Assembly (NCBI GenBank): GCA_964369365.1
Contig: CAYJES010000001.1
Coordinates: 30,967 to 94,966 of the forward strand
DNA length: 64,000 bases
Direction: 5' to 3'
Source of the DNA: an uncultured Lactobacillales bacterium
GTDB lineage: Bacteria; Pseudomonadota; Alphaproteobacteria; CAYJES01
Both the position numbers and the translations under genes were made by a program. Below, piece after piece: positions 29,006-39,977 of the stretch. Within the stretch, counting starts at the first letter, position 1. Every line of letters begins with the position of its first letter. The notes under the pieces are model-generated. The model was not told the DNA's origin. It saw only the letters and a program-made list of their open reading frames with translations, and did not search any database.

Positions 29006-29638
29006 TTACTTTTCTATCCAAATATAACTATTTTGCCTTAATGCTTTTTCTTTTTGTCTGCGGTATGAATAAAAACTATCTTTCATTGAAAATGTACACA
29101 TATCAATGCCGAAAATATTTTCTTTAGGTATTCCCGATTGCATTAATTGATGATTTGTTAATTCCCACAAGTTCATAGTTTGATTACATATAGAAAACCA
29201 CCCTATAAAATCTTGTCCCCATTCGCTGTCAAAATTTATAAATTCAGAAACTTGTGGAGACAAACTTGGTCCTCTTACAGCCATTATATCATTTGCCGAC
29301 ACATTATAAGTATTGCAAAATTCATCAATGGCTTTACCTATGAAATTTATCCTATTCCCGCGCCAACCAACATGAAGCGCCATTATATATTTTCCACTTT
29401 TATGTGATATTAAAATAGACTGACAATCTGCTGTTTTAATTTTTAAATATATTCCTTTTTCATTTGTGGCATGTCCATCTGCTTGCGGTTGTTCTGACAA
29501 TATGTCTGGATTAAAAATAACACTGTCTTGATGCACTTGATTAAGCTCTCTTGTCAAATCTCTATCAAGATTCAAATCTTCCTTTATTGTCCCAAAAAAA
29601 CATTTTACATTCTTTATTTTTGGGAAAGAAAATTCCAT
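29006..29638 (-). CDS. YfiH/PgeF (laccase-domain, DUF152) family protein.
   Basis: HVGWRGN motif. Size 210 aa. Confidence 0.6.
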   Translation of the reverse strand: MEFSFPKIKNVKCFFGTIKEDLNLDRDLTRELNQVHQDSVIFNPDILSEQPQADGHATNEKGIYLKIKTADCQSILISHKSGKYIMALHVGWRGNRINFIGKAIDEFCNTYNVSANDIMAVRGPSLSPQVSEFINFDSEWGQDFIGWFSICNQTMNLWELTNHQLMQSGIPKENIFGIDMCTFSMKDSFYSYRRQKEKALRQNSYIWIEK

Positions 29639-32600
29639 TATCTTACTTCTATCCTTTTGCTGTATTTAAACAACACTACTATTTCATTATCGATATAATC
29701 CCTATACAATGCTCCGAAATTGAAAGATGAGCTTTCGTCAATTTCATGATTATATGACATTTGGAAATTAGTTTCATTAGGTGTTTTCATATCTATTTCA
29801 TAGTTATCATAATAAATATTTCCATCAATATCCCTAGAATTAGCCAATGACAAATCGAATTTACCAGAATTTATTTTAACCGGTTGTGATATTAAAAATG
29901 AAATATTACTAGTTTGCCCATGCACTCTGTCAAAATTATAGCTTAGTCCCACTGCATATGAGCTTGAATAAAAGTCGCTGATATTTTTTATCAAAGAATT
30001 GTCAGATTCATTCACAACAGTAAAACCTATATTAACAGCACCTATTAAAGACAGCTTATCATTAAAAAATTTCATGTCTGTTTGAAAGCTTGTCATATAT
30101 GTTGTGTTATTTTCCCCTATTCCAAAAGCACCATTCCAAGAATTTCCGAACAGAGTTTCATTTTCATTAATTATACCAAGTTCTATTTTAGTATTAATAT
30201 TTTCATTAACGTCATAACTTATACCTGCCATAAATGCTGTGGCATTTCCTATATATTCGCCTTCTGAAAAACTGTCGTATTCATCATATTCCATAGTGTA
30301 ATTTTGTTGAATAAATCCAACGTTAAAATACGAATTTTGCGAAATTTTAAATGATGAGTTAAATCCATAATTATCATCACTATCATTTTTGAAATAAGGA
30401 TTTAATGGATTGTAATCATTAGAATTAGCCAATGTGAAATTATTGTAAAAATTCGATTTTTCATTCACAAATGTATTGTATGGGTTATTACCGTAATAAA
30501 AATTAAATCCATATTCTTTTTTGCTGTCTTGATATGACAATTCAATTTCTTCCGAATCTTTTATCTCTTCGCTTGTTGATTTGCTGTAATATAAATTAAA
30601 GCTTTCATCCTTGCCAAACGATATTGTTTTATGGGTTTTTGAAGCAAAATTTTCTAAAACTTTTTTTGCATCTATTCTGTTGGTATCTGTTTGGATCAAA
30701 TTGTTTAATTTTATATCATAAGTACGGTTATATTCATCAAAAACTACCATCTTCAAATCTTTGCTTTTGATATTATAAGCGATTGAAGAATCAAGTTTCA
30801 TAGTACTTACATTGATACTTTGTTTTGCAGCAGTTATTTTACTATCTAACCCTACTGATAAAGCGTCTGATGGTCTTGTTGCTCTTTCCAAATCCAACAT
30901 TCCCCATCCATAAATTTCATCTACACCTTCTTCGCCTAAATCTCTTGCTGTTGAAAATAATAGTTGAGTTATCTCTGCGCCACTAAGGTACGGGAAAGCT
31001 CCTTCTATAACTGCTACTGCGCCACTGACTATTGCTGCTGCACCTGATGTTCCTACAACAGCGCTATAACCATTTACTTCAGATGGTACAATACTGTATC
31101 CTGTCGTTAATGTCCAAGTACCAGGAGCAGAAATACAATATTCCATTGCCACACCACATTTATTGCTTGAGGCATGCAATTCTCCTTCATCAACATCATA
31201 ATTCACAACAGTTACAAAATTTTTGTAATATCCTGTACTGCTATCATAATACACATCTTGATAATGTAATGGAATCGCATTATTCATACTAGGTTGTGAT
31301 AACCCTTCATTTCCTGCTGCGAACACAAATATGACATCATTATTAATAACGGCTTGATTCATTTTATCTATATAATTACTGGTATAATTTGTATTTGGAT
31401 TATAGTTACTAGTAGTATCAGTATAATAAGAATTTGCACCTGAACCAACCAGTACATCTCCGAATGCATACTTTAATACATTTTGTGCTTGTGATCCAAA
31501 TTGCCCAGGAGTTGAAGCATTTAAACCAATTTCTGTTTGAGTGTCTTCTGTTGCAACCAGACCATAGCTGTTATTTATTACTGATGCTCCTTTTAATGCA
31601 GCATCTGCAAATGCTTCACCTATATAATAATTAGGTACAAAACTCTCGTCGCTTAATGATATTTTATATGGGATAATTTCAGCATCAGGAGCAACCCCAA
31701 TTATTCCTGTATTGTTGTCTGCAGCAACCATAAGTCCTGCCATATTAGTTCCGTGGGCAACATTTGTAGTTGTTGCATCTTTGCCATCTCCATATTCTCT
31801 ATTAGGGCTTGGATTACCATCTGAGCCTTGTGATTCTCCACAAATAGCAAGACCAGTTGCTACTTCACAAAAATTAAAAGCTACGTTAGTATTTCTTAAA
31901 TCATCTGATCTGTTATCAATTAGCTCTACATGCGATATTTCAACACCCGTATCCATAATAGCAATTTTTATAGCATCACCTTCACCAAAAGAACCTGAAC
32001 CATCTGTACCTAAATAATTAGGAGAAGTGCTGCCATCTGATTTTTTACCAGTAAAACCCCTTGCATGCGCATATGCCATTCTCATTAAATCAAAATCGTC
32101 TTTGTTTGAAAAAGTTAAACTACCGCTTGTTGCAGATCTTATATATTCACTATCATTTAGTACAGCGTCTAAATCTGTTTGCCTTACAAAACCAACTTCA
32201 TCATAATTTTTATCAATAGATGAAGTTCCACCGGAAGACCCTCCACCGCTTGAACCACCGCTATCGCTGCCGCCTCCACCACCTGCAGCTATTGCAACTC
32301 CACCACCTACTAGTGCAACCGCACCTACTGTTAAGCCTACTTTTCCTATAGAAAACCCTCCAGAAGTAGCAGAGGCTATAGTTGTAGATGAAATTGGCGT
32401 TGATGCTTGAGCTTGGTATGAGTTTATTTGTTTTATCATTGCTGATTGTGAACAATTATTTGGATTAAATCTTGAAAAAAGATGTCGTATTCTTGCATCT
32501 CTACTTAGCATTCCGGCGCAATAAACGAAATCTCTGCTTGCATCTCTTACTAATGGTCTTGCTCCATTTGAAAGCAAAATATTTGTTATTTCATAATTTT

Positions 32601-32796
32601 GATTCATCAAAGAATAACTAAGTGGAGTATTACCAAACCTGTCCACGACATTAACATTATATGGATTTATAGTTTGCATAACAAGATTCATATTATTTGT
32701 TTTTGCACCGTTTATAACTCTGAAATCAACTTGTGAGTATGCGGGATTTTGATTAAAAATTATAACAGCAAGAGAACACAAAAAAATCTTTTTCAT
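29638..32796 (-). CDS. Secreted S8 subtilisin-like serine protease with N-terminal ankyrin repeats, Gly/Ser-rich linker and a large C-terminal beta-rich (autotransporter-like) domain.
   Basis: Signal peptide. Ankyrin segment GNTPLSYSLMNQNYEITNILLSNGA. Catalytic triad contexts AIMDTGV (Asp), HGTNMAG (His) and GTSGAA (Ser). C-terminal ~350 aa with alternating aromatic beta-strand pattern. Confidence 0.7.
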   Translation of the reverse strand: MKKIFLCSLAVIIFNQNPAYSQVDFRVINGAKTNNMNLVMQTINPYNVNVVDRFGNTPLSYSLMNQNYEITNILLSNGARPLVRDASRDFVYCAGMLSRDARIRHLFSRFNPNNCSQSAMIKQINSYQAQASTPISSTTIASATSGGFSIGKVGLTVGAVALVGGGVAIAAGGGGGSDSGGSSGGGSSGGTSSIDKNYDEVGFVRQTDLDAVLNDSEYIRSATSGSLTFSNKDDFDLMRMAYAHARGFTGKKSDGSTSPNYLGTDGSGSFGEGDAIKIAIMDTGVEISHVELIDNRSDDLRNTNVAFNFCEVATGLAICGESQGSDGNPSPNREYGDGKDATTTNVAHGTNMAGLMVAADNNTGIIGVAPDAEIIPYKISLSDESFVPNYYIGEAFADAALKGASVINNSYGLVATEDTQTEIGLNASTPGQFGSQAQNVLKYAFGDVLVGSGANSYYTDTTSNYNPNTNYTSNYIDKMNQAVINNDVIFVFAAGNEGLSQPSMNNAIPLHYQDVYYDSSTGYYKNFVTVVNYDVDEGELHASSNKCGVAMEYCISAPGTWTLTTGYSIVPSEVNGYSAVVGTSGAAAIVSGAVAVIEGAFPYLSGAEITQLLFSTARDLGEEGVDEIYGWGMLDLERATRPSDALSVGLDSKITAAKQSINVSTMKLDSSIAYNIKSKDLKMVVFDEYNRTYDIKLNNLIQTDTNRIDAKKVLENFASKTHKTISFGKDESFNLYYSKSTSEEIKDSEEIELSYQDSKKEYGFNFYYGNNPYNTFVNEKSNFYNNFTLANSNDYNPLNPYFKNDSDDNYGFNSSFKISQNSYFNVGFIQQNYTMEYDEYDSFSEGEYIGNATAFMAGISYDVNENINTKIELGIINENETLFGNSWNGAFGIGENNTTYMTSFQTDMKFFNDKLSLIGAVNIGFTVVNESDNSLIKNISDFYSSSYAVGLSYNFDRVHGQTSNISFLISQPVKINSGKFDLSLANSRDIDGNIYYDNYEIDMKTPNETNFQMSYNHEIDESSSFNFGALYRDYIDNEIVVLFKYSKRIEVR

Positions 32797-35800: not shown

Positions 35801-35930
35801 CAACAGGAGGAGTTACCTGAGGATATAACGAAATTGATAAAGAAAATAATGATATCGCCCCCGCCAATGACAATACTATCGATATTACCATAGCGAATTT
35901 TGGGCGATTTATGAAAAATTTAGAAAACAT
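32847..35930 (-). CDS. RND (HAE1/AcrB-like) efflux transporter.
   Basis: Size 1027 aa. 12-TM RND architecture. AcrB-like N-terminus MFSKFFINRPKFAMVISIVL. Confidence 0.85.
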   Translation of the reverse strand: MFSKFFINRPKFAMVISIVLSLAGAISLFSLSISLYPQVTPPVVSIFASYPGASADVIAKSVGIPIEDSVNGVPGMLYMESTSSNKGTYSLSITFDTDVDQDIAQTEVQNRIQQATARLPSEVSRTGLSVRTKSPDSLGYISLYSTDGKVGILELADYVENNVKNELIRTAGVGDVMVRASKASMRVWLNSNKLTALGISLNDVKIAIESQNTQTSLGSVGAMPNEEATSLTYSLETLGRLNTVETFKDIIIRTNESGGVVRLSDVADIEIGNESYGIVAELRNNPSVSIVISMLSGANAVQTMSNVKETIEKLKKMLPEGIGIEVSYDTTEYISASITEVIYTLLLTFVLVAVVCYLFLQDVRATIIPVLTIPTSLLATFAVLLVLGYSINILTLFGLVLAIGLVVDDAIVVVERVLAIMQKEKLSGKEAALKAMDEVSGAVIATTLVLLAIFVPIGFLGGITGKIYQQFAVAISTAVVFSSLNALTLSPALCGLILKPLKERKTGFFATFNKRLKNLSNVYAYWLQVLGKKIIFVLLFLLAFIVATIGILNISSTSFIPQEDQGVMFANIQLPEGATLSRTQEVVEKMKKIYKQEEEIVSDLAIYGADGENTAFVILPLSPWNERGEDKTPTAIINEFRKQTEQIPEARVNFFQRPSIPGLGLSAGIDMKLQSLLTSDPQELDDKTGEVVAKISAIPGVAYAYTSYTAKKASIFIEIDRKKAEAMGVKTGEILGVLQNYLGSSYINDVNFGTQVNKVVLQASWDYRKSPEAIKNLHVLSSKGKFVPLSSLIELKKVLSPRIVSRYNQYPAAGISIVLMPTAASGDVMASIENLFMDESMYGYTFEWSGLTYQEAKSQGQVGFLIILAIVFGYLFLVAQYESWTTPIPVLLSVFVAMFGALAALYVLGLSLSIYAQLGLILIVGLGSKSAILIVEFAQTEREKGAGVIAAAKIGTQERFRAVLMTAFTFILGVFPMIIATGAGAAARRALGSPVFYGMVMGTVVGLLATPLFYILIMKMKDTLKKN

Positions 35931-37063
35931 TATTCAACCTCTTGCGGTTTTACTTTTGCGCCGTTACTTATTTTTTGCAGACCTTCTATTATTATTTTTT
36001 CCCCGCCATTTAATCCTTCATCAACAACTTGCGTTTTACCGATTAATGATCCTGATTTAATCCTTGTTTGGATAGCTTTATTATCTTTGTCTATTAAATA
36101 AACATAACTGCCATATTTGTCTTCACCTATTGCTGTTGCTGGCACAACGACAACTGGACTGTCCATTTTTTCAAAAACTATTACTTTTACATAATTGCCT
36201 GCAGTTAATAAATTTTCTGTGTTCTTGTACTCCCCATATAATGTTATCGTGGCAGTATCTTTATCTATTTGATTGTCCACAAAAAGTGAAGTCATTTTTT
36301 CAGGTAAAATTTTGCCATTTGCAAGCTCTATTTCTATATCAATGTTTTCAGTCCCCAAAACTTTACCATTCAAATATTCCTTATCAGATACAGAAAAAGC
36401 AACCCTTATCGGATTTTGCTGGACTATTCTTGCCAAGCTTGTTTGACCTGAGGTTACAAAGTTTCCTTCTGTTACCAATGCTGTACCTATCATACCTGCG
36501 ATTGGTGCTTTTATCTTAGAATTTTCTAGGTCAATTTCTGCAAGCTTTACATTTGCTGCTGCTTGTTTTTGCGATGCACGAGCCTGCGCCAATTCTGATT
36601 CAGCCTTTTCCAAACTTGATTCAGAAATATGATTATCTTTATATAGCGTTACAGTTCTTATGAAATCTTTTTCCAACATCACAACATTTGCATTTGCATG
36701 TTCAAGTTCCGCTGTTTTTAAAGACAAATTTGCTGAATATTTATCAGAGTCTATTTTAAATAATACTTGCCCTTTTTTTACTAATGAACCTTCTTCAAAT
36801 AAAACCCTTTCTACGTTTCCAGAAATTTCAGGCTTTAAATCAACAAATTTTATTGGCTCTACTATTCCTATATATTCAATCTTTGGTGAAATGTCTTGTT
36901 TTTTGACTTCCTGAGAAAAAACGGCAACATCGCCTTGCGCGCCACCTTTACGCATCATCATAGCCTTAACATTAGCAGGAGGTCCTGACGTCGCACCACG
37001 TACAAACCAACCCGCAATAAGAGAAGATGTTATAATTATAACCAGAAAAATAACGTTTTTCAT
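35930..37063 (-). CDS. RND efflux periplasmic adaptor (MFP, AcrA/HlyD-like).
   Basis: Signal anchor. Coiled-coil and lipoyl/beta-barrel layout. 1-nt overlap with the RND gene. Confidence 0.8.
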   Translation of the reverse strand: MKNVIFLVIIITSSLIAGWFVRGATSGPPANVKAMMMRKGGAQGDVAVFSQEVKKQDISPKIEYIGIVEPIKFVDLKPEISGNVERVLFEEGSLVKKGQVLFKIDSDKYSANLSLKTAELEHANANVVMLEKDFIRTVTLYKDNHISESSLEKAESELAQARASQKQAAANVKLAEIDLENSKIKAPIAGMIGTALVTEGNFVTSGQTSLARIVQQNPIRVAFSVSDKEYLNGKVLGTENIDIEIELANGKILPEKMTSLFVDNQIDKDTATITLYGEYKNTENLLTAGNYVKVIVFEKMDSPVVVVPATAIGEDKYGSYVYLIDKDNKAIQTRIKSGSLIGKTQVVDEGLNGGEKIIIEGLQKISNGAKVKPQEVE

Positions 37064-37214
37064 TACGATTTCCTTAAAAGTTTATTTTCAAACAGGATAT
37101 ACCTATCTTCAAATATTGCAATAAAATAAAACTTACCCATATTATACGTTTTAAAATTAAAAAAGTTTCGGTTAGAGATATTAATTATTACATTGGTTAA
37201 GTTCTCTAATTTTA

Positions 37215-37242
37215 AAAGGGGCAACTTTTCATTGCCCCTTTT
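37215..37242 (-). terminator. Rho-independent terminator (bidirectional-capable hairpin) downstream of the nrdD fragments.
   Basis: aaaaGGGGCAActtttcaTTGCCCCtttt: 7-bp GC-rich stem flanked by A and T runs. Confidence 0.6.
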
Positions 37243-37265
37243 CATGTCTTGGTTAAAAAATAACC

Positions 37266-37454
37266 TTATGCTGCTTGAACTTTAGCTGCTTTTTCAGCTG
37301 TTGCTTGATTTTCAGTAAAGCATACTCTTTCGTTATACTCACCTTTTTTCCCAATATTGAATTGAGAATATGGACGGTGATATCCCATTACCCTTGTCCA
37401 AACTTCACAAGGTTGTCTTTCTTCATCTTTTAATAGTGTTTCTACGCTTCCCAT
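37266..37454 (-). CDS. Stand-alone glycyl-radical domain of the anaerobic ribonucleotide reductase (C-terminal NrdD fragment). In frame with and 25 nt downstream of the main nrdD ORF.
   Basis: Protein WTRVMGYHRPYSQFNIGKKGEYNERV matches the NrdD C-terminal RVxGY glycyl-radical loop. AAGGAGG lies 5 nt upstream of its ATG. Confidence 0.65.
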   Translation of the reverse strand: MGSVETLLKDEERQPCEVWTRVMGYHRPYSQFNIGKKGEYNERVCFTENQATAEKAAKVQAA

Positions 37455-37478
37455 TTTATCCTCCTTTGTTATTGTTAA

Positions 37479-39581
37479 TTAATTATCTTTTTTATCTTTT
37501 TGCTTTTTTGCAATAATTTCTTGATCGCATAGTGGGCAAAATTTATGTTCGCCAGAAATATAACCATGTTTTGGACATATAGAGAATGTCGGAGTTACAG
37601 TTATATAAGGCAAACGGTAATTCGTAAGCACTTTACGTACTAAATTTTTACATACTTCTGAATCTGAAATTCTTTCATTCATGTAAAGGTGAAGTACTGT
37701 ACCACCTGTGTATTTTGTTTGTAAGTCTTCTTGTAAATCCAATGCAGTGAAAGGATCATCAGTAAATCCTACTGGAAGTTGTGATGAATTCGTATAAAAC
37801 GGATTTTCATCAGTACCAGCATGTAAAATATCAGGATATTTAGCAATATCACTTTTTACCATACGGTATGTTGCGCCTTCGGCTGGGGTTGCTTCTAAAT
37901 TATACATATGTCCCGTTTCATTTTGAAATTCTACCATCTTATTTCTGATGTGATCTAAGAACTTTATTGCAAATTCGTTGCCAAATTTATCAGTGATGTT
38001 ATTTTTATCGTTGGTAAAGTTTCTTATCATCTCATTTATGCCGTTTACGCCAATAGTAGAGAAATGATTCCTTAATGTACCAAGATAACGTTTTGTAAAT
38101 GGGAACAATCCTTCATCCATATGCTTTTGAATTGTTTTTCTTTTCACTTCTAGTGAATTCTTAGCCATTTCAAGCAACACATCTAGTCTTTTATATAAAC
38201 CTTCTTCATCACCTTTATATTCATAACCCATACGAGCACAGTTTAATGTAACCACACCAATAGAGCCAGTTTGTTCCGCAGAACCAAACAAACCATTACC
38301 TTTTGCAAGCAACTCTCTTAAATCCAATTGCAAACGACAGCACATAGAACGTACCATTTTTGGTGACAATGGAGAGTTTATGAAATTTTGGAAGTATGGC
38401 AAACCATATTTGGCAGTCATTTCAAACAATAATGTTGTGTTTTCATCATCCCAAGGAAAATCCTTAGTAATATTATAAGTAGGAATCGGGAAAGTAAATA
38501 AACGACCTTTACTATCTCCCTTTGTCATTACTTCTATGTATGCGCGGTTTATCATTGCCATTTCATCTTTTAATTCGCTATAAGTAAATGACATTTCTTC
38601 GCCAGCTATTACTGGGTGATTATTTTCCAAATCTTCTGGGCATACCCAATCAAAAGTTAGGTTTGTAAATGGAGTTTGAGTACCCCAACGTGATGGCACA
38701 TTCAAATTATAAATAAATTCTTGGATATGCTGTTTTACTTCTGCATAATCTAGATTATCTTTTCTGATGAATGGTGCAAGATAAGTGTCAAATGATGAAA
38801 ATGCTTGTGCACCAGCCCATTCGTTTTGCACAGTACCAAAGAAATTTACAGCTTGACCAAGAGCACTTCCCAAATGTTTAGGAGGAGAAGATTCAACTTT
38901 ATTAGCTACGCCATTAAATCCTTCTAATAATAAAGTTTTCAACGACCAACCTGCGCAATAACCAGCCAACATATCTAAATCATGAATGTAAAAATCGCCA
39001 TTTCTATGAGCATCGCCAATTTCAGGAGAATAAACATGAGACAACCAATAATTAGCAGTTAATTTACCAGATATATTAAGAATAAGCCCGCCTAATGAAT
39101 ATCCTTGGTTTGCATTTGCATTAACACGCCAATCTGCTTGTGATAAATATTCATTGATAGATGATACTGCATCAACAACAGCTTTTTTATCTTGACGCAT
39201 TTTTGCGCGTTGTTCACGATATACTATATACGCACGTGCAGTTTTAATAAAATTGTTAACAATTAATGTTTGCTCTACTACATCTTGTATTTGTTCAATA
39301 GTAGGATAATTTTTTTCATAAGTACGATATTTAAGAACTTTTAAAACTTGTTTTGCAAGCAAACGAGCTTCTTCTTCTTCAAATTCGCCAGTAGCCTCAC
39401 CTGCCATTTTTACAGCAGAAAGGATTTTTTCCTGATCAAAAGGCATTTTTGTATTATCTCTTTTAATTACAAAAGATAAAGTCGCCAAAGAAATTACTTT
39501 TTTATCGTCTTCTTTCATCAAAACATCACTCACTTTTAAATTATTCCCATCTATCTGAACTGTTAAACCATTATTGCACAT
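37479..39581 (-). CDS. nrdD: Anaerobic ribonucleoside-triphosphate reductase (class III) main chain, ending at an in-frame TAA before the glycyl-radical loop. Start uncertain (39581 or 39518); the track start at 39671 is an over-extension.
   Basis: ATP-cone (VIKRDNTKMPFDQEKI). Class III RNR core. C-terminal Zn ribbon CPKHG...CPLCD. NrdR-box-like palindromes lie inside the track's 5' extension. Confidence 0.75.
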   Translation of the reverse strand: MCNNGLTVQIDGNNLKVSDVLMKEDDKKVISLATLSFVIKRDNTKMPFDQEKILSAVKMAGEATGEFEEEEARLLAKQVLKVLKYRTYEKNYPTIEQIQDVVEQTLIVNNFIKTARAYIVYREQRAKMRQDKKAVVDAVSSINEYLSQADWRVNANANQGYSLGGLILNISGKLTANYWLSHVYSPEIGDAHRNGDFYIHDLDMLAGYCAGWSLKTLLLEGFNGVANKVESSPPKHLGSALGQAVNFFGTVQNEWAGAQAFSSFDTYLAPFIRKDNLDYAEVKQHIQEFIYNLNVPSRWGTQTPFTNLTFDWVCPEDLENNHPVIAGEEMSFTYSELKDEMAMINRAYIEVMTKGDSKGRLFTFPIPTYNITKDFPWDDENTTLLFEMTAKYGLPYFQNFINSPLSPKMVRSMCCRLQLDLRELLAKGNGLFGSAEQTGSIGVVTLNCARMGYEYKGDEEGLYKRLDVLLEMAKNSLEVKRKTIQKHMDEGLFPFTKRYLGTLRNHFSTIGVNGINEMIRNFTNDKNNITDKFGNEFAIKFLDHIRNKMVEFQNETGHMYNLEATPAEGATYRMVKSDIAKYPDILHAGTDENPFYTNSSQLPVGFTDDPFTALDLQEDLQTKYTGGTVLHLYMNERISDSEVCKNLVRKVLTNYRLPYITVTPTFSICPKHGYISGEHKFCPLCDQEIIAKKQKDKKDN

Positions 39582-39593
39582 TATTATTAATAT

Positions 39594-39640
39594 TTCGTAT
39601 ATATAGAGTCTATTTGTATATTTGCATACTATATATAGTA
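39594..39640 (-). promoter_or_regulatory. Two NrdR-box-like palindromes upstream of nrdD, centres ~32 bp apart.
   Basis: Box 2 TACTATATATAGTA is a perfect 14-bp palindrome at 39627-39640. Box 1 GTATATATAGAG is at 39597-39608. Compare NrdR consensus acaCwAtATaTwGtgt. Confidence 0.5.
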
Positions 39641-39977
39641 ATCGTAATAAAAAATTTAATATCCAATACATACTAGAATAAGGGTATTGTCAAAGCAAAA
39701 AATAATTATTTTTTTTCGGATTGTTTTATATAAAAAATTCAAAAAAAAGTTAATTTAATTTTGTCTTTTTTTTATACCTTCTTTCTTTATCCACAGGCCT
39801 CGCAAACCCGCAGACCTTATGGTATATTTTTGTTTTTATTACATTTATTTTGATGCTGTTTTTTTTATTATTGGAGTCGTTTAAAAAAAATAAAAAAAAC
39901 TATATATTGTTATTGTAAAAATTGAAAATGACCTATATAGTTAAAAAAAAGTTAATTATTTTTAAAGGATTGGGGCT

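Follow-up and report, generated by a model that had tools for sequence, protein, structure and literature searches.

A probable naturally split class III ribonucleotide reductase with its glycyl-radical loop on a separate small protein

In a 64,000-nucleotide (nt) stretch of genomic DNA from an uncultured alphaproteobacterium (contig CAYJES010000001.1 of assembly GCA_964369365.1, positions 30,967 to 94,966 of the forward strand; hereafter the window), nrdD, the gene for the anaerobic, class III ribonucleotide reductase (RNR), is interrupted by an in-frame TAA, and the glycyl-radical loop of the enzyme is encoded beyond that stop on an open reading frame (ORF) of its own. Is this a damaged gene, or does the enzyme consist of two polypeptides? 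The evidence assembled here indicates that the locus very probably encodes a naturally split class III RNR of the PRK08270, or double-cysteine (SMCCR), type, made as two polypeptides. From conservation and synteny we infer that the two form one active enzyme.

The large ORF terminates at a TAA codon (37479–37481; all features of the locus lie on the minus strand unless stated otherwise) that is followed by T and sits just past a Zn ribbon; its C terminus reads ...FSICPKHGYISGEHKFCPLCDQEIIAKKQKDKKDN. In codons, the junction runs TTT TGC CCA CTA TGC GAT CAA GAA ATT ATT GCA AAA AAG CAA AAA GAT AAA AAA GAT AAT TAA, then TTAACAATAACAAAGGAGGATAAA, then ATG GGA AGC. The intercistronic spacer of 24 nt (37455–37478) is in frame and holds no other stop. 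It includes a Shine–Dalgarno (SD) sequence, AAGGAGG (37460–37466), 5 nt ahead of the ATG (37452–37454) of the small-subunit coding sequence (CDS; 37266..37454), which comprises 62 codons and a TAA stop of its own. The small CDS, delimited by the ORF list and recognized by NCBIfam and Pfam profiles, carries the glycyl-radical loop WTRVMGYHRP, with the codon of Gly24 at 37383–37385. A sequence-only reading of the window had placed the end of nrdD at this TAA after the ribbon, the RVMGY loop on the 62-residue ORF and a consensus SD 5 nt ahead of its ATG, and coordinates and sequence agree with it on each count. The length of 730 residues that it gave to NrdD is that of the mechanical ORF (37479..39671), which is over-extended at its 5′ end; the starts of homologues match GTG 39533 or ATG 39518, yielding 684 residues or, for the CDS 37479..39518, 679 residues. 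AAGGAGG occurs five times in the window, both strands counted, and at least three of the occurrences directly precede ORF starts; given this rarity and placement, its position before the small ORF is unlikely to be due to chance. A terminator-like hairpin, AAAAGGGGCAAU...GUUGCCCCUUUU (37214..37242, located by folding), begins 23 nt past the small-ORF stop. Its 12-bp stem (−18.3 kcal/mol, z = −4.35, with 0/200 shuffles folding equally well) runs into UUUU. A consensus terminator scan of the window gave no match, and missed this hairpin because its T run comprises just 4 T. The nrdD unit appears to be a two-gene operon without nrdG, the gene of the activase, and bounded by this hairpin.

Profile searches show that the two ORFs divide one protein between them. 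On Pfam NRDD (PF13597, 562 positions) the large ORF covers positions 2–529 and the small ORF 531–562; on NCBIfam PRK08270 (684 positions) they cover 4–659 and 649–682, respectively. Such complementary ranges identify them as complementary parts of one NrdD. Class III membership of the large ORF is documented by PRK08270 (1117 bits, cut-off 548), TIGR02487 (479 bits, cut-off 326) and Pfam NRDD (E = 2.6e-175); its matches to B12-dependent RNR models are restricted to the ATP-cone. This cone, the allosteric activity site (PF03477, E = 9e-22), occupies residues 67–156 of the 730-residue ORF (39204..39473) and is followed by the finger loop SMCCR with its double cysteine (residues 442–446; 38334..38348), a motif whose NrdD classes (MGCR or MCCR) have been described (PMC9669993). 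The Zn ribbon CPKHGYISGEHKFCPLC (residues 699–715; 37527..37577) lies entirely within the large subunit and aligns to the NrdD of Thermotoga maritima (TmNrdD), which offers a precedent for its predicted Cys/His/Cys/Cys Zn site. The RVxGY loop is absent from the large ORF and is present in trans on the 62-residue ORF. In Pfam at E ≤ 0.01 the latter matches PF13597 NRDD only and no pyruvate formate-lyase (PFL)-type glycyl-radical family, and in NCBIfam it matches NrdD models only. The large ORF aligns to TmNrdD (PDB 4COI) up to about residue 610, and the profile of the small proteins aligns to residues 617–645, Gly621 included. In TmNrdD the Zn ion is bound by CxxxHx6CxxC, and the ribbon follows the last barrel strand and precedes the Gly loop. 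From these alignments, the break falls between the complete Zn ribbon, which stays with the large subunit, and the radical loop.

The same division is found throughout the homologues of both ORFs. The best 120 large-subunit homologues are 73–86% identical to the window protein and 673–713 residues long; the Zn ribbon and SMCCR are present in 120/120, the Gly motif in 0/120, and every chain ends 15–27 residues past the CxxC. Relatives of the small ORF form 1431 clusters at 90% identity, and the 120 of them that were listed are all 51–97 residues long and all carry the motif. An alignment of 42 small proteins, the window's included, has 20 invariant positions, every one of which is kept in the window protein, and gives the consensus L.DEERQPCEVWTRVMGYHRPvssFNiGKKGEf.ERvCF.E. 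Searched against 1.84 billion cluster representatives, the profile of this alignment returns 1180 matches at E ≤ 1e-10, the best 150 of which are all 54–109 residues long. With one genome scanned per GTDB species, a small-ORF relative is present in at least 592 genomes, distributed over Alpha-, Beta- and Gammaproteobacteria, Actinobacteria, Coriobacteriia, Acidobacteria, Chlamydiae, Omnitrophota, Elusimicrobiota, Deinococcaceae and other taxa.

The arrangement of the two genes was classified by script at 81 genomic loci, namely the best 80 and the window. The large subunit lies directly upstream of the small ORF at 65 of them, the small ORF is an orphan at 15, and a single locus (L067) holds a fused gene. 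At the 65 split loci the gap between the ORFs ranges from −4 to +221 nt (median 31) and includes seven ATGA overlaps; the large ORF stops at TGA in 36, TAA in 22 and TAG in 7. The small ORF starts with ATG in 65/65, and an SD of at least 4 nt at a spacing of 3–12 nt precedes it in 60/65. Frame offsets of 0, 1 and 2 occur at 14, 22 and 29 loci, and the nearest relative of the window (L004, 86% identical) has a spacer of 17 nt by gene call and is out of frame. All three offsets being represented, the in-frame arrangement of the window is coincidental: the shared frame noted in the sequence-only reading is real in the window, and relatives do not keep it. From locus to locus, frame and spacing change freely, which points to independent or coupled initiation of the small protein rather than to read-through. 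Between the window and L004, the proportions of nonsynonymous (pN) and synonymous (pS) differences are 0.10 and 0.78 for the large ORF and 0.15 and 0.69 for the small ORF (omega ~0.08); synonymous sites are saturated, and pN/pS is ~0.13–0.2. As judged from these sequence comparisons, both ORFs are under strong purifying selection, and the split is conserved and selected across a very large bacterial clade and is no private lesion.

Single-chain relatives do exist. Fused NrdDs with the WTRVMGY loop are found in Actinobacteria (P0422, P0436 and P0394), where linkers of 3–11 residues follow the CxxC; examples with such short linkers come from Streptomyces (CPTCGAECEVWTRVMGY), Corynebacterium durum and Propionibacteriaceae. 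The segment LxDEERQPCE, invariant in the small proteins, is missing from these short-linker forms. The fused L067, from a metagenome-assembled genome (MAG) of uncultured Alphaproteobacteria, and the fused protein of Halorhodospira abdelmalekii (P0417) have longer linkers, in which a large-subunit tail seems to run on into a small-subunit N terminus, and these two may be secondary re-fusions. A homologue search with a 107-residue fused C-terminal segment returned mainly contig-end fragments, and fused forms are among its results.

The gene order of the wider family ties the small ORF to the activase. In tblastn searches with two NrdG queries, nrdG is found directly downstream of the small ORF in 69 of 86 sequences (85 loci and the window). 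In Afifella pfennigii the order is large subunit (674 residues), small subunit (62 residues) and a radical S-adenosylmethionine (radical-SAM) activase with an 8-nt overlap onto the small ORF; another lineage has a 577-residue large subunit without ATP-cone that overlaps the small ORF by 4 nt. A different layout is seen at L076 (3944–4864), from a Holosporaceae MAG, where the small ORF and nrdG are adjacent and the genes upstream are those of fatty-acid synthesis, with no nrdD large subunit. This layout indicates that the three genes can be dispersed, which bears on the absence of nrdG from the window, where nrdG must be encoded outside the 64 kb if the enzyme works.

The 15 orphan small ORFs among the 81 loci have no large subunit nearby, and most also lack nrdG. 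Loci with neither gene within 4 kb are L010, L012, L017, L037, L038, L045, L047, L049, L050, L051, L073, L075 and L084, the small ORF being at position ~4000 in most of them. Their hosts include five Sutterella species, in which the chromosomal neighbours are conserved, and several gut Alphaproteobacteria. In one MAG, CALXXX01, an orphan copy (L084) occurs besides an operon copy (L057). Phages also carry the gene: a scan of IMG/VR retrieved small-subunit relatives from 308 viral contigs, the best 80 of which were examined further (L086–L165; small ORF at ~5000 in most). The core motif is missing in one of these 80, and 71 of the other 79 have neither large subunit nor nrdG within 5 kb. The viral neighbours are plainly those of phages, with lysozyme, tail fibre and integrase genes at L087 and L090, and DNA polymerase, primase-helicase and lysozyme genes at L103. 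Some viral copies are identical or near-identical to orphans of Alphaproteobacteria MAGs (L075 with L102, L049 with L096), which indicates that those MAG orphans are prophage-borne. PHROGs places the motif in phrog_4132, labelled ‘unknown function’; cultured-phage records of INPHARED contain no match to the small protein, so that the phage evidence consists of IMG/VR contigs. The presence of orphan paralogues in bacteria and phages hints at an exchangeable subunit.

In 14 of the 80 viral loci the phage-borne small ORF has as its neighbour a further conserved ORF, of ~105–118 residues, which often overlaps it. Examples are L087 (5321–5635), L090 (4679–5011) and L103 (4559–4915), together with L073 (3640–3993); 10 further viral loci have it as well. 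The termini of this neighbour are characteristic, F(P/E)DYxAxEQE at the N terminus and KP(K/R)F(H/R)CIxNQG at the C terminus; neither Pfam nor PHROGs matches it, and it lacks a radical-SAM motif.

A mechanism can be proposed by analogy with the single-chain enzymes. The small subunit would dock non-covalently on the large one so that its Gly loop enters the barrel, as the covalent C terminus does in the NrdDs of phage T4 and T. maritima; the invariant LxDEERQPCE segment is a candidate docking element. NrdG would abstract a hydrogen from Gly24 and thereby install the radical. Within the barrel the Gly loop would face the SMCCR finger loop, and the radical would pass to a finger-loop cysteine for reduction of nucleoside triphosphates. 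Oxygen cleaves glycyl-radical enzymes at the radical glycine (2026 review; 2021 paper). Damage of this kind would cost the split enzyme only its 7-kDa subunit, which could be re-made and exchanged, a built-in version of the spare-part principle of GrcA/YfiD. On this basis we tentatively suggest, at somewhat less than even chances, that the ~60-residue protein is an exchangeable, consumable, radical-carrying subunit of class III RNR whose supply is kept up by orphan and phage copies. We hold with high confidence that the split is a genuine, conserved trait, and with moderate to low confidence that it constitutes a replaceable-subunit system.

Taken alone, the window could be read as a single-chain nrdD hit by a recent nonsense mutation, a pseudogene or a sequencing or assembly error: a single in-frame TAA, eight sense codons and then the remainder of the protein resemble a point lesion. 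However, the same break recurs in all 120 nearest homologues and at 65 of the 81 loci, in independent assemblies with differing spacers and frames. The large subunits possess 15–27-residue tails of their own, the small ones N-terminal extensions of their own with SD and ATG, and selection on both ORFs is strongly purifying. A lesion is therefore vanishingly improbable, and the sequence-only reading, which had argued against random mutation or sequencing error and for a two-polypeptide NrdD, is upheld by these counts and by the conserved starts; relatives show the opposite of an intact gene without internal SD, since split and SD are both conserved. A fused product made by programmed read-through of the TAA, which would render the start of the small ORF irrelevant, finds a basis in the shared frame of the window ORFs and the lack of another stop between them. 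It is nevertheless extremely unlikely: 51 of the 65 split loci are out of frame (+1 in 22, +2 in 29), the nearest relative among them, seven have ATGA overlaps, and a consensus SD at ideal spacing stands ahead of the ATG. The stop context also speaks against it, TAA followed by T being an efficient context for termination in bacteria. An alternative genetic code was considered briefly and set aside: TAA also terminates the small ORF, and at the junction the relatives stop with TAA, TGA or TAG.

Several observations weigh against a functional two-polypeptide enzyme or against its proposed role. As the sequence-only reading had remarked, no nrdG is visible near the locus; this holds for the whole 64-kb window, in which the two NrdG queries reach a best tblastn E value of 1.8 (E ≤ 10 allowed) and no ORF of more than 100 residues has a CxxxCxxC motif, and it makes the window atypical among the 86 sequences. 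Nor does nrdG adjoin the gene in the two nearest relatives, so that for this genome it is purifying selection that speaks for function. An AlphaFold2 model of the joined chains from an unpaired block alignment is too poor to use (mean predicted local distance difference test score 50.5, predicted TM-score 0.45), and docking of the small on the large subunit is accordingly argued by homology. In the literature searched, no protein-level support was found for assembly or for a radical on the small polypeptide. The advantage of a replaceable subunit is hypothetical, and the fission could equally be neutral and tolerated. The missing activase would fit a locus that is decaying or already non-functional in this genome, its enzyme having nothing to activate it. 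This is quite unlikely, given that both ORFs are intact, all 20 invariant residues of the small protein are present, pN/pS remains low against a relative with saturated synonymous sites, and the strong SD and terminator-like hairpin are kept; in addition, activase genes can sit elsewhere, as L076 illustrates with nrdG and small ORF apart from the large gene. Alternatively, a real and conserved fission might be neutral, without a spare-part role, and orphan and phage copies might serve otherwise, for example by inhibiting or hijacking the host enzyme. Two known splits, that of NrdJa/NrdJb in Pseudomonas aeruginosa and that of the class I alpha subunit in phage Aeh1, are described as variants without a repair role. 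Yet the only element destroyed by oxygen is exactly what the break sets apart, extra copies exist beside an operon copy (in CALXXX01) and in the 308 viral contigs, and the small proteins keep the complete activase-substrate motif. We regard neutral fission as a real but rather unlikely alternative to an exchangeable subunit. In either case, the window gene is intact, is ordinary for its clade and is to be annotated as two CDSs.

Canonical single-chain NrdDs of phage T4, Escherichia coli and T. maritima (PDB 1H7A, 4COI and 4U3E) have the same domains in the same order, namely an optional ATP-cone, a 10-stranded barrel with the finger loop, the Zn ribbon and the RVxGY loop. The split enzyme differs from them in that the chain stops past the Zn ribbon, the radical loop being made from its own start as a second polypeptide; the large subunit has gained a tail of 15–27 residues, and the small subunit a conserved N-terminal LxDEERQPCE. 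Small free-standing glycyl-radical-loop proteins are also known from the PFL spare parts GrcA/YfiD of E. coli and Y06I of phage T4. The small subunit probably shares with GrcA/YfiD radical-SAM activation and docking into a large enzyme, and both have phage versions. However, the PFL that GrcA backs up has a loop of its own, whereas the large subunit described here has none, which would make the small protein obligatory and no backup. There is no family-level homology between GrcA/YfiD and the small ORF: the GrcA/YfiD-like subunit proposed in the sequence-only reading stands as a functional analogy and not as family membership, Pfam NRDD being the only family matched. According to a 2026 review, formate-lyases form the sole class of glycyl-radical enzymes with identified spare-part proteins, and a paper of 2021 speculates that other glycyl-radical enzymes may have them as well. 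Splits of RNR catalytic subunits are known in the other classes, as class II NrdJa/NrdJb in P. aeruginosa and other gammaproteobacteria and as class I alpha in phage Aeh1, where an adjacent gene pair encodes products that reassemble. The present locus likewise has two adjacent, co-oriented genes that jointly cover one RNR catalytic subunit and are conserved across a clade. NrdJa/NrdJb and Aeh1 differ in RNR class and in break point, and do not isolate the radical-bearing element.

The two-CDS layout is already visible in annotation. RefSeq lists three CDSs on the megaplasmid pHG1 of Cupriavidus necator H16: H16_RS32680, a 676-residue ‘ribonucleoside triphosphate reductase’; H16_RS32675, 66 residues, ‘nrdD’; and H16_RS32670, the activase; the same three-CDS annotation is found in Bradyrhizobium. 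These loci share architecture and family with the window. Their small CDS is called by the Prokaryotic Genome Annotation Pipeline and named anaerobic ribonucleoside-triphosphate reductase, and the two-CDS annotation states no function. They differ in that nrdG is immediately downstream, overlapping the small CDS, whereas the window operon ends at its hairpin without nrdG. A plasmid and chromid collection contains 161 matching records, 132 of them from Ralstonia, with Bradyrhizobium, Cupriavidus and Paracoccus among the remaining sources. A NrdD fragment of P. aeruginosa ends ...FCPKCDEELLQRSTPKSCCGGCG after the Zn ribbon and is of the split type. The genome paper of Cupriavidus metallidurans CH34 assigns NrdDG to Rmet_5137 and Rmet_5139 and leaves Rmet_5138 unmentioned. 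Among the RNR variants listed in a review are the split class I alpha of phage Aeh1 and the split class II NrdJa/b and no split class III, and in two large RNR sequence analyses ‘split’ is used only for the NrdJ reference or for tree methods. No description of a split class III RNR was found in the full-text literature searched, where an earlier mention remains possible; a class III RNR with an obligatory separate radical loop thus appears undescribed in that literature.

The finding bears directly on a question raised in the field, whether glycyl-radical enzymes besides PFL have replacement proteins. If an exchangeable subunit is confirmed, spare-part systems would extend for the first time to a glycyl-radical enzyme other than the formate-lyases, and phages would carry their own copy to keep the anaerobic deoxynucleotide supply of the host running during infection. 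The phage-borne orphan copies suggest a previously unrecognized auxiliary metabolic gene. Surveys of NrdD filtered by length or domain may treat the large proteins as truncated or overlook the small gene, which is of ‘unknown function’ in PHROGs and ‘hypothetical’ in some records. The split arrangement is present in the tractable C. necator H16, Paracoccus denitrificans and Ralstonia solanacearum, and apparently in P. aeruginosa, and is thus directly addressable.

The tails of the large subunits show a feature of their own. In 101 of the 120 nearest homologues (P0002–P0120) the tail ends in a cysteine pair or cluster (ACAC, ACSC, CCS, NCGNCN or SCCGGCG), as it does in 7 of the 65 diverse loci; examples are L009, L014, L024, L029, L031, L039 and P0462 (P. 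aeruginosa). The tail of the window protein, DQEIIAKKQKDKKDN, has no such pair or cluster. The cysteine-bearing tails are reminiscent of the redox-shuttle pair at the C terminus of class I and II RNRs, and it is a possibility that fission frees the large-subunit C terminus for a cysteine-pair redox-shuttle tail as in those classes. A Cys-rich tail also terminates many small subunits.

The over-extended part of the 730-residue ORF, upstream of the likely nrdD start, holds the palindrome ACTATATATAGT (39628..39639, unstranded), which resembles an NrdR box and matches the consensus exactly. The evidence is weak: with ≤1 mismatch allowed, the pattern is matched four times in the window where 1.4 matches are expected. 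Another 271 nt upstream, in the intergenic region between nrdD and fliL, ACTATATATTGT (39899–39910) is a second exact match to this degenerate pattern. The nrdD unit is flanked by fliL and fliM, which diverge upstream, and by resistance–nodulation–division (RND) efflux genes downstream; Rfam and tRNA scans of the window gave no matches. A 60-residue ORF at 37063–37245 (minus strand) overlaps the terminator-like hairpin and abuts the start of the RND adaptor gene (35930–37063); it is probably no gene. Just downstream of the RND pump genes, a 1052-residue ORF (29638–32796, minus strand) contains a subtilisin-like protease domain; models of mycosin and of autotransporter serine peptidases match it weakly, below their cut-offs.

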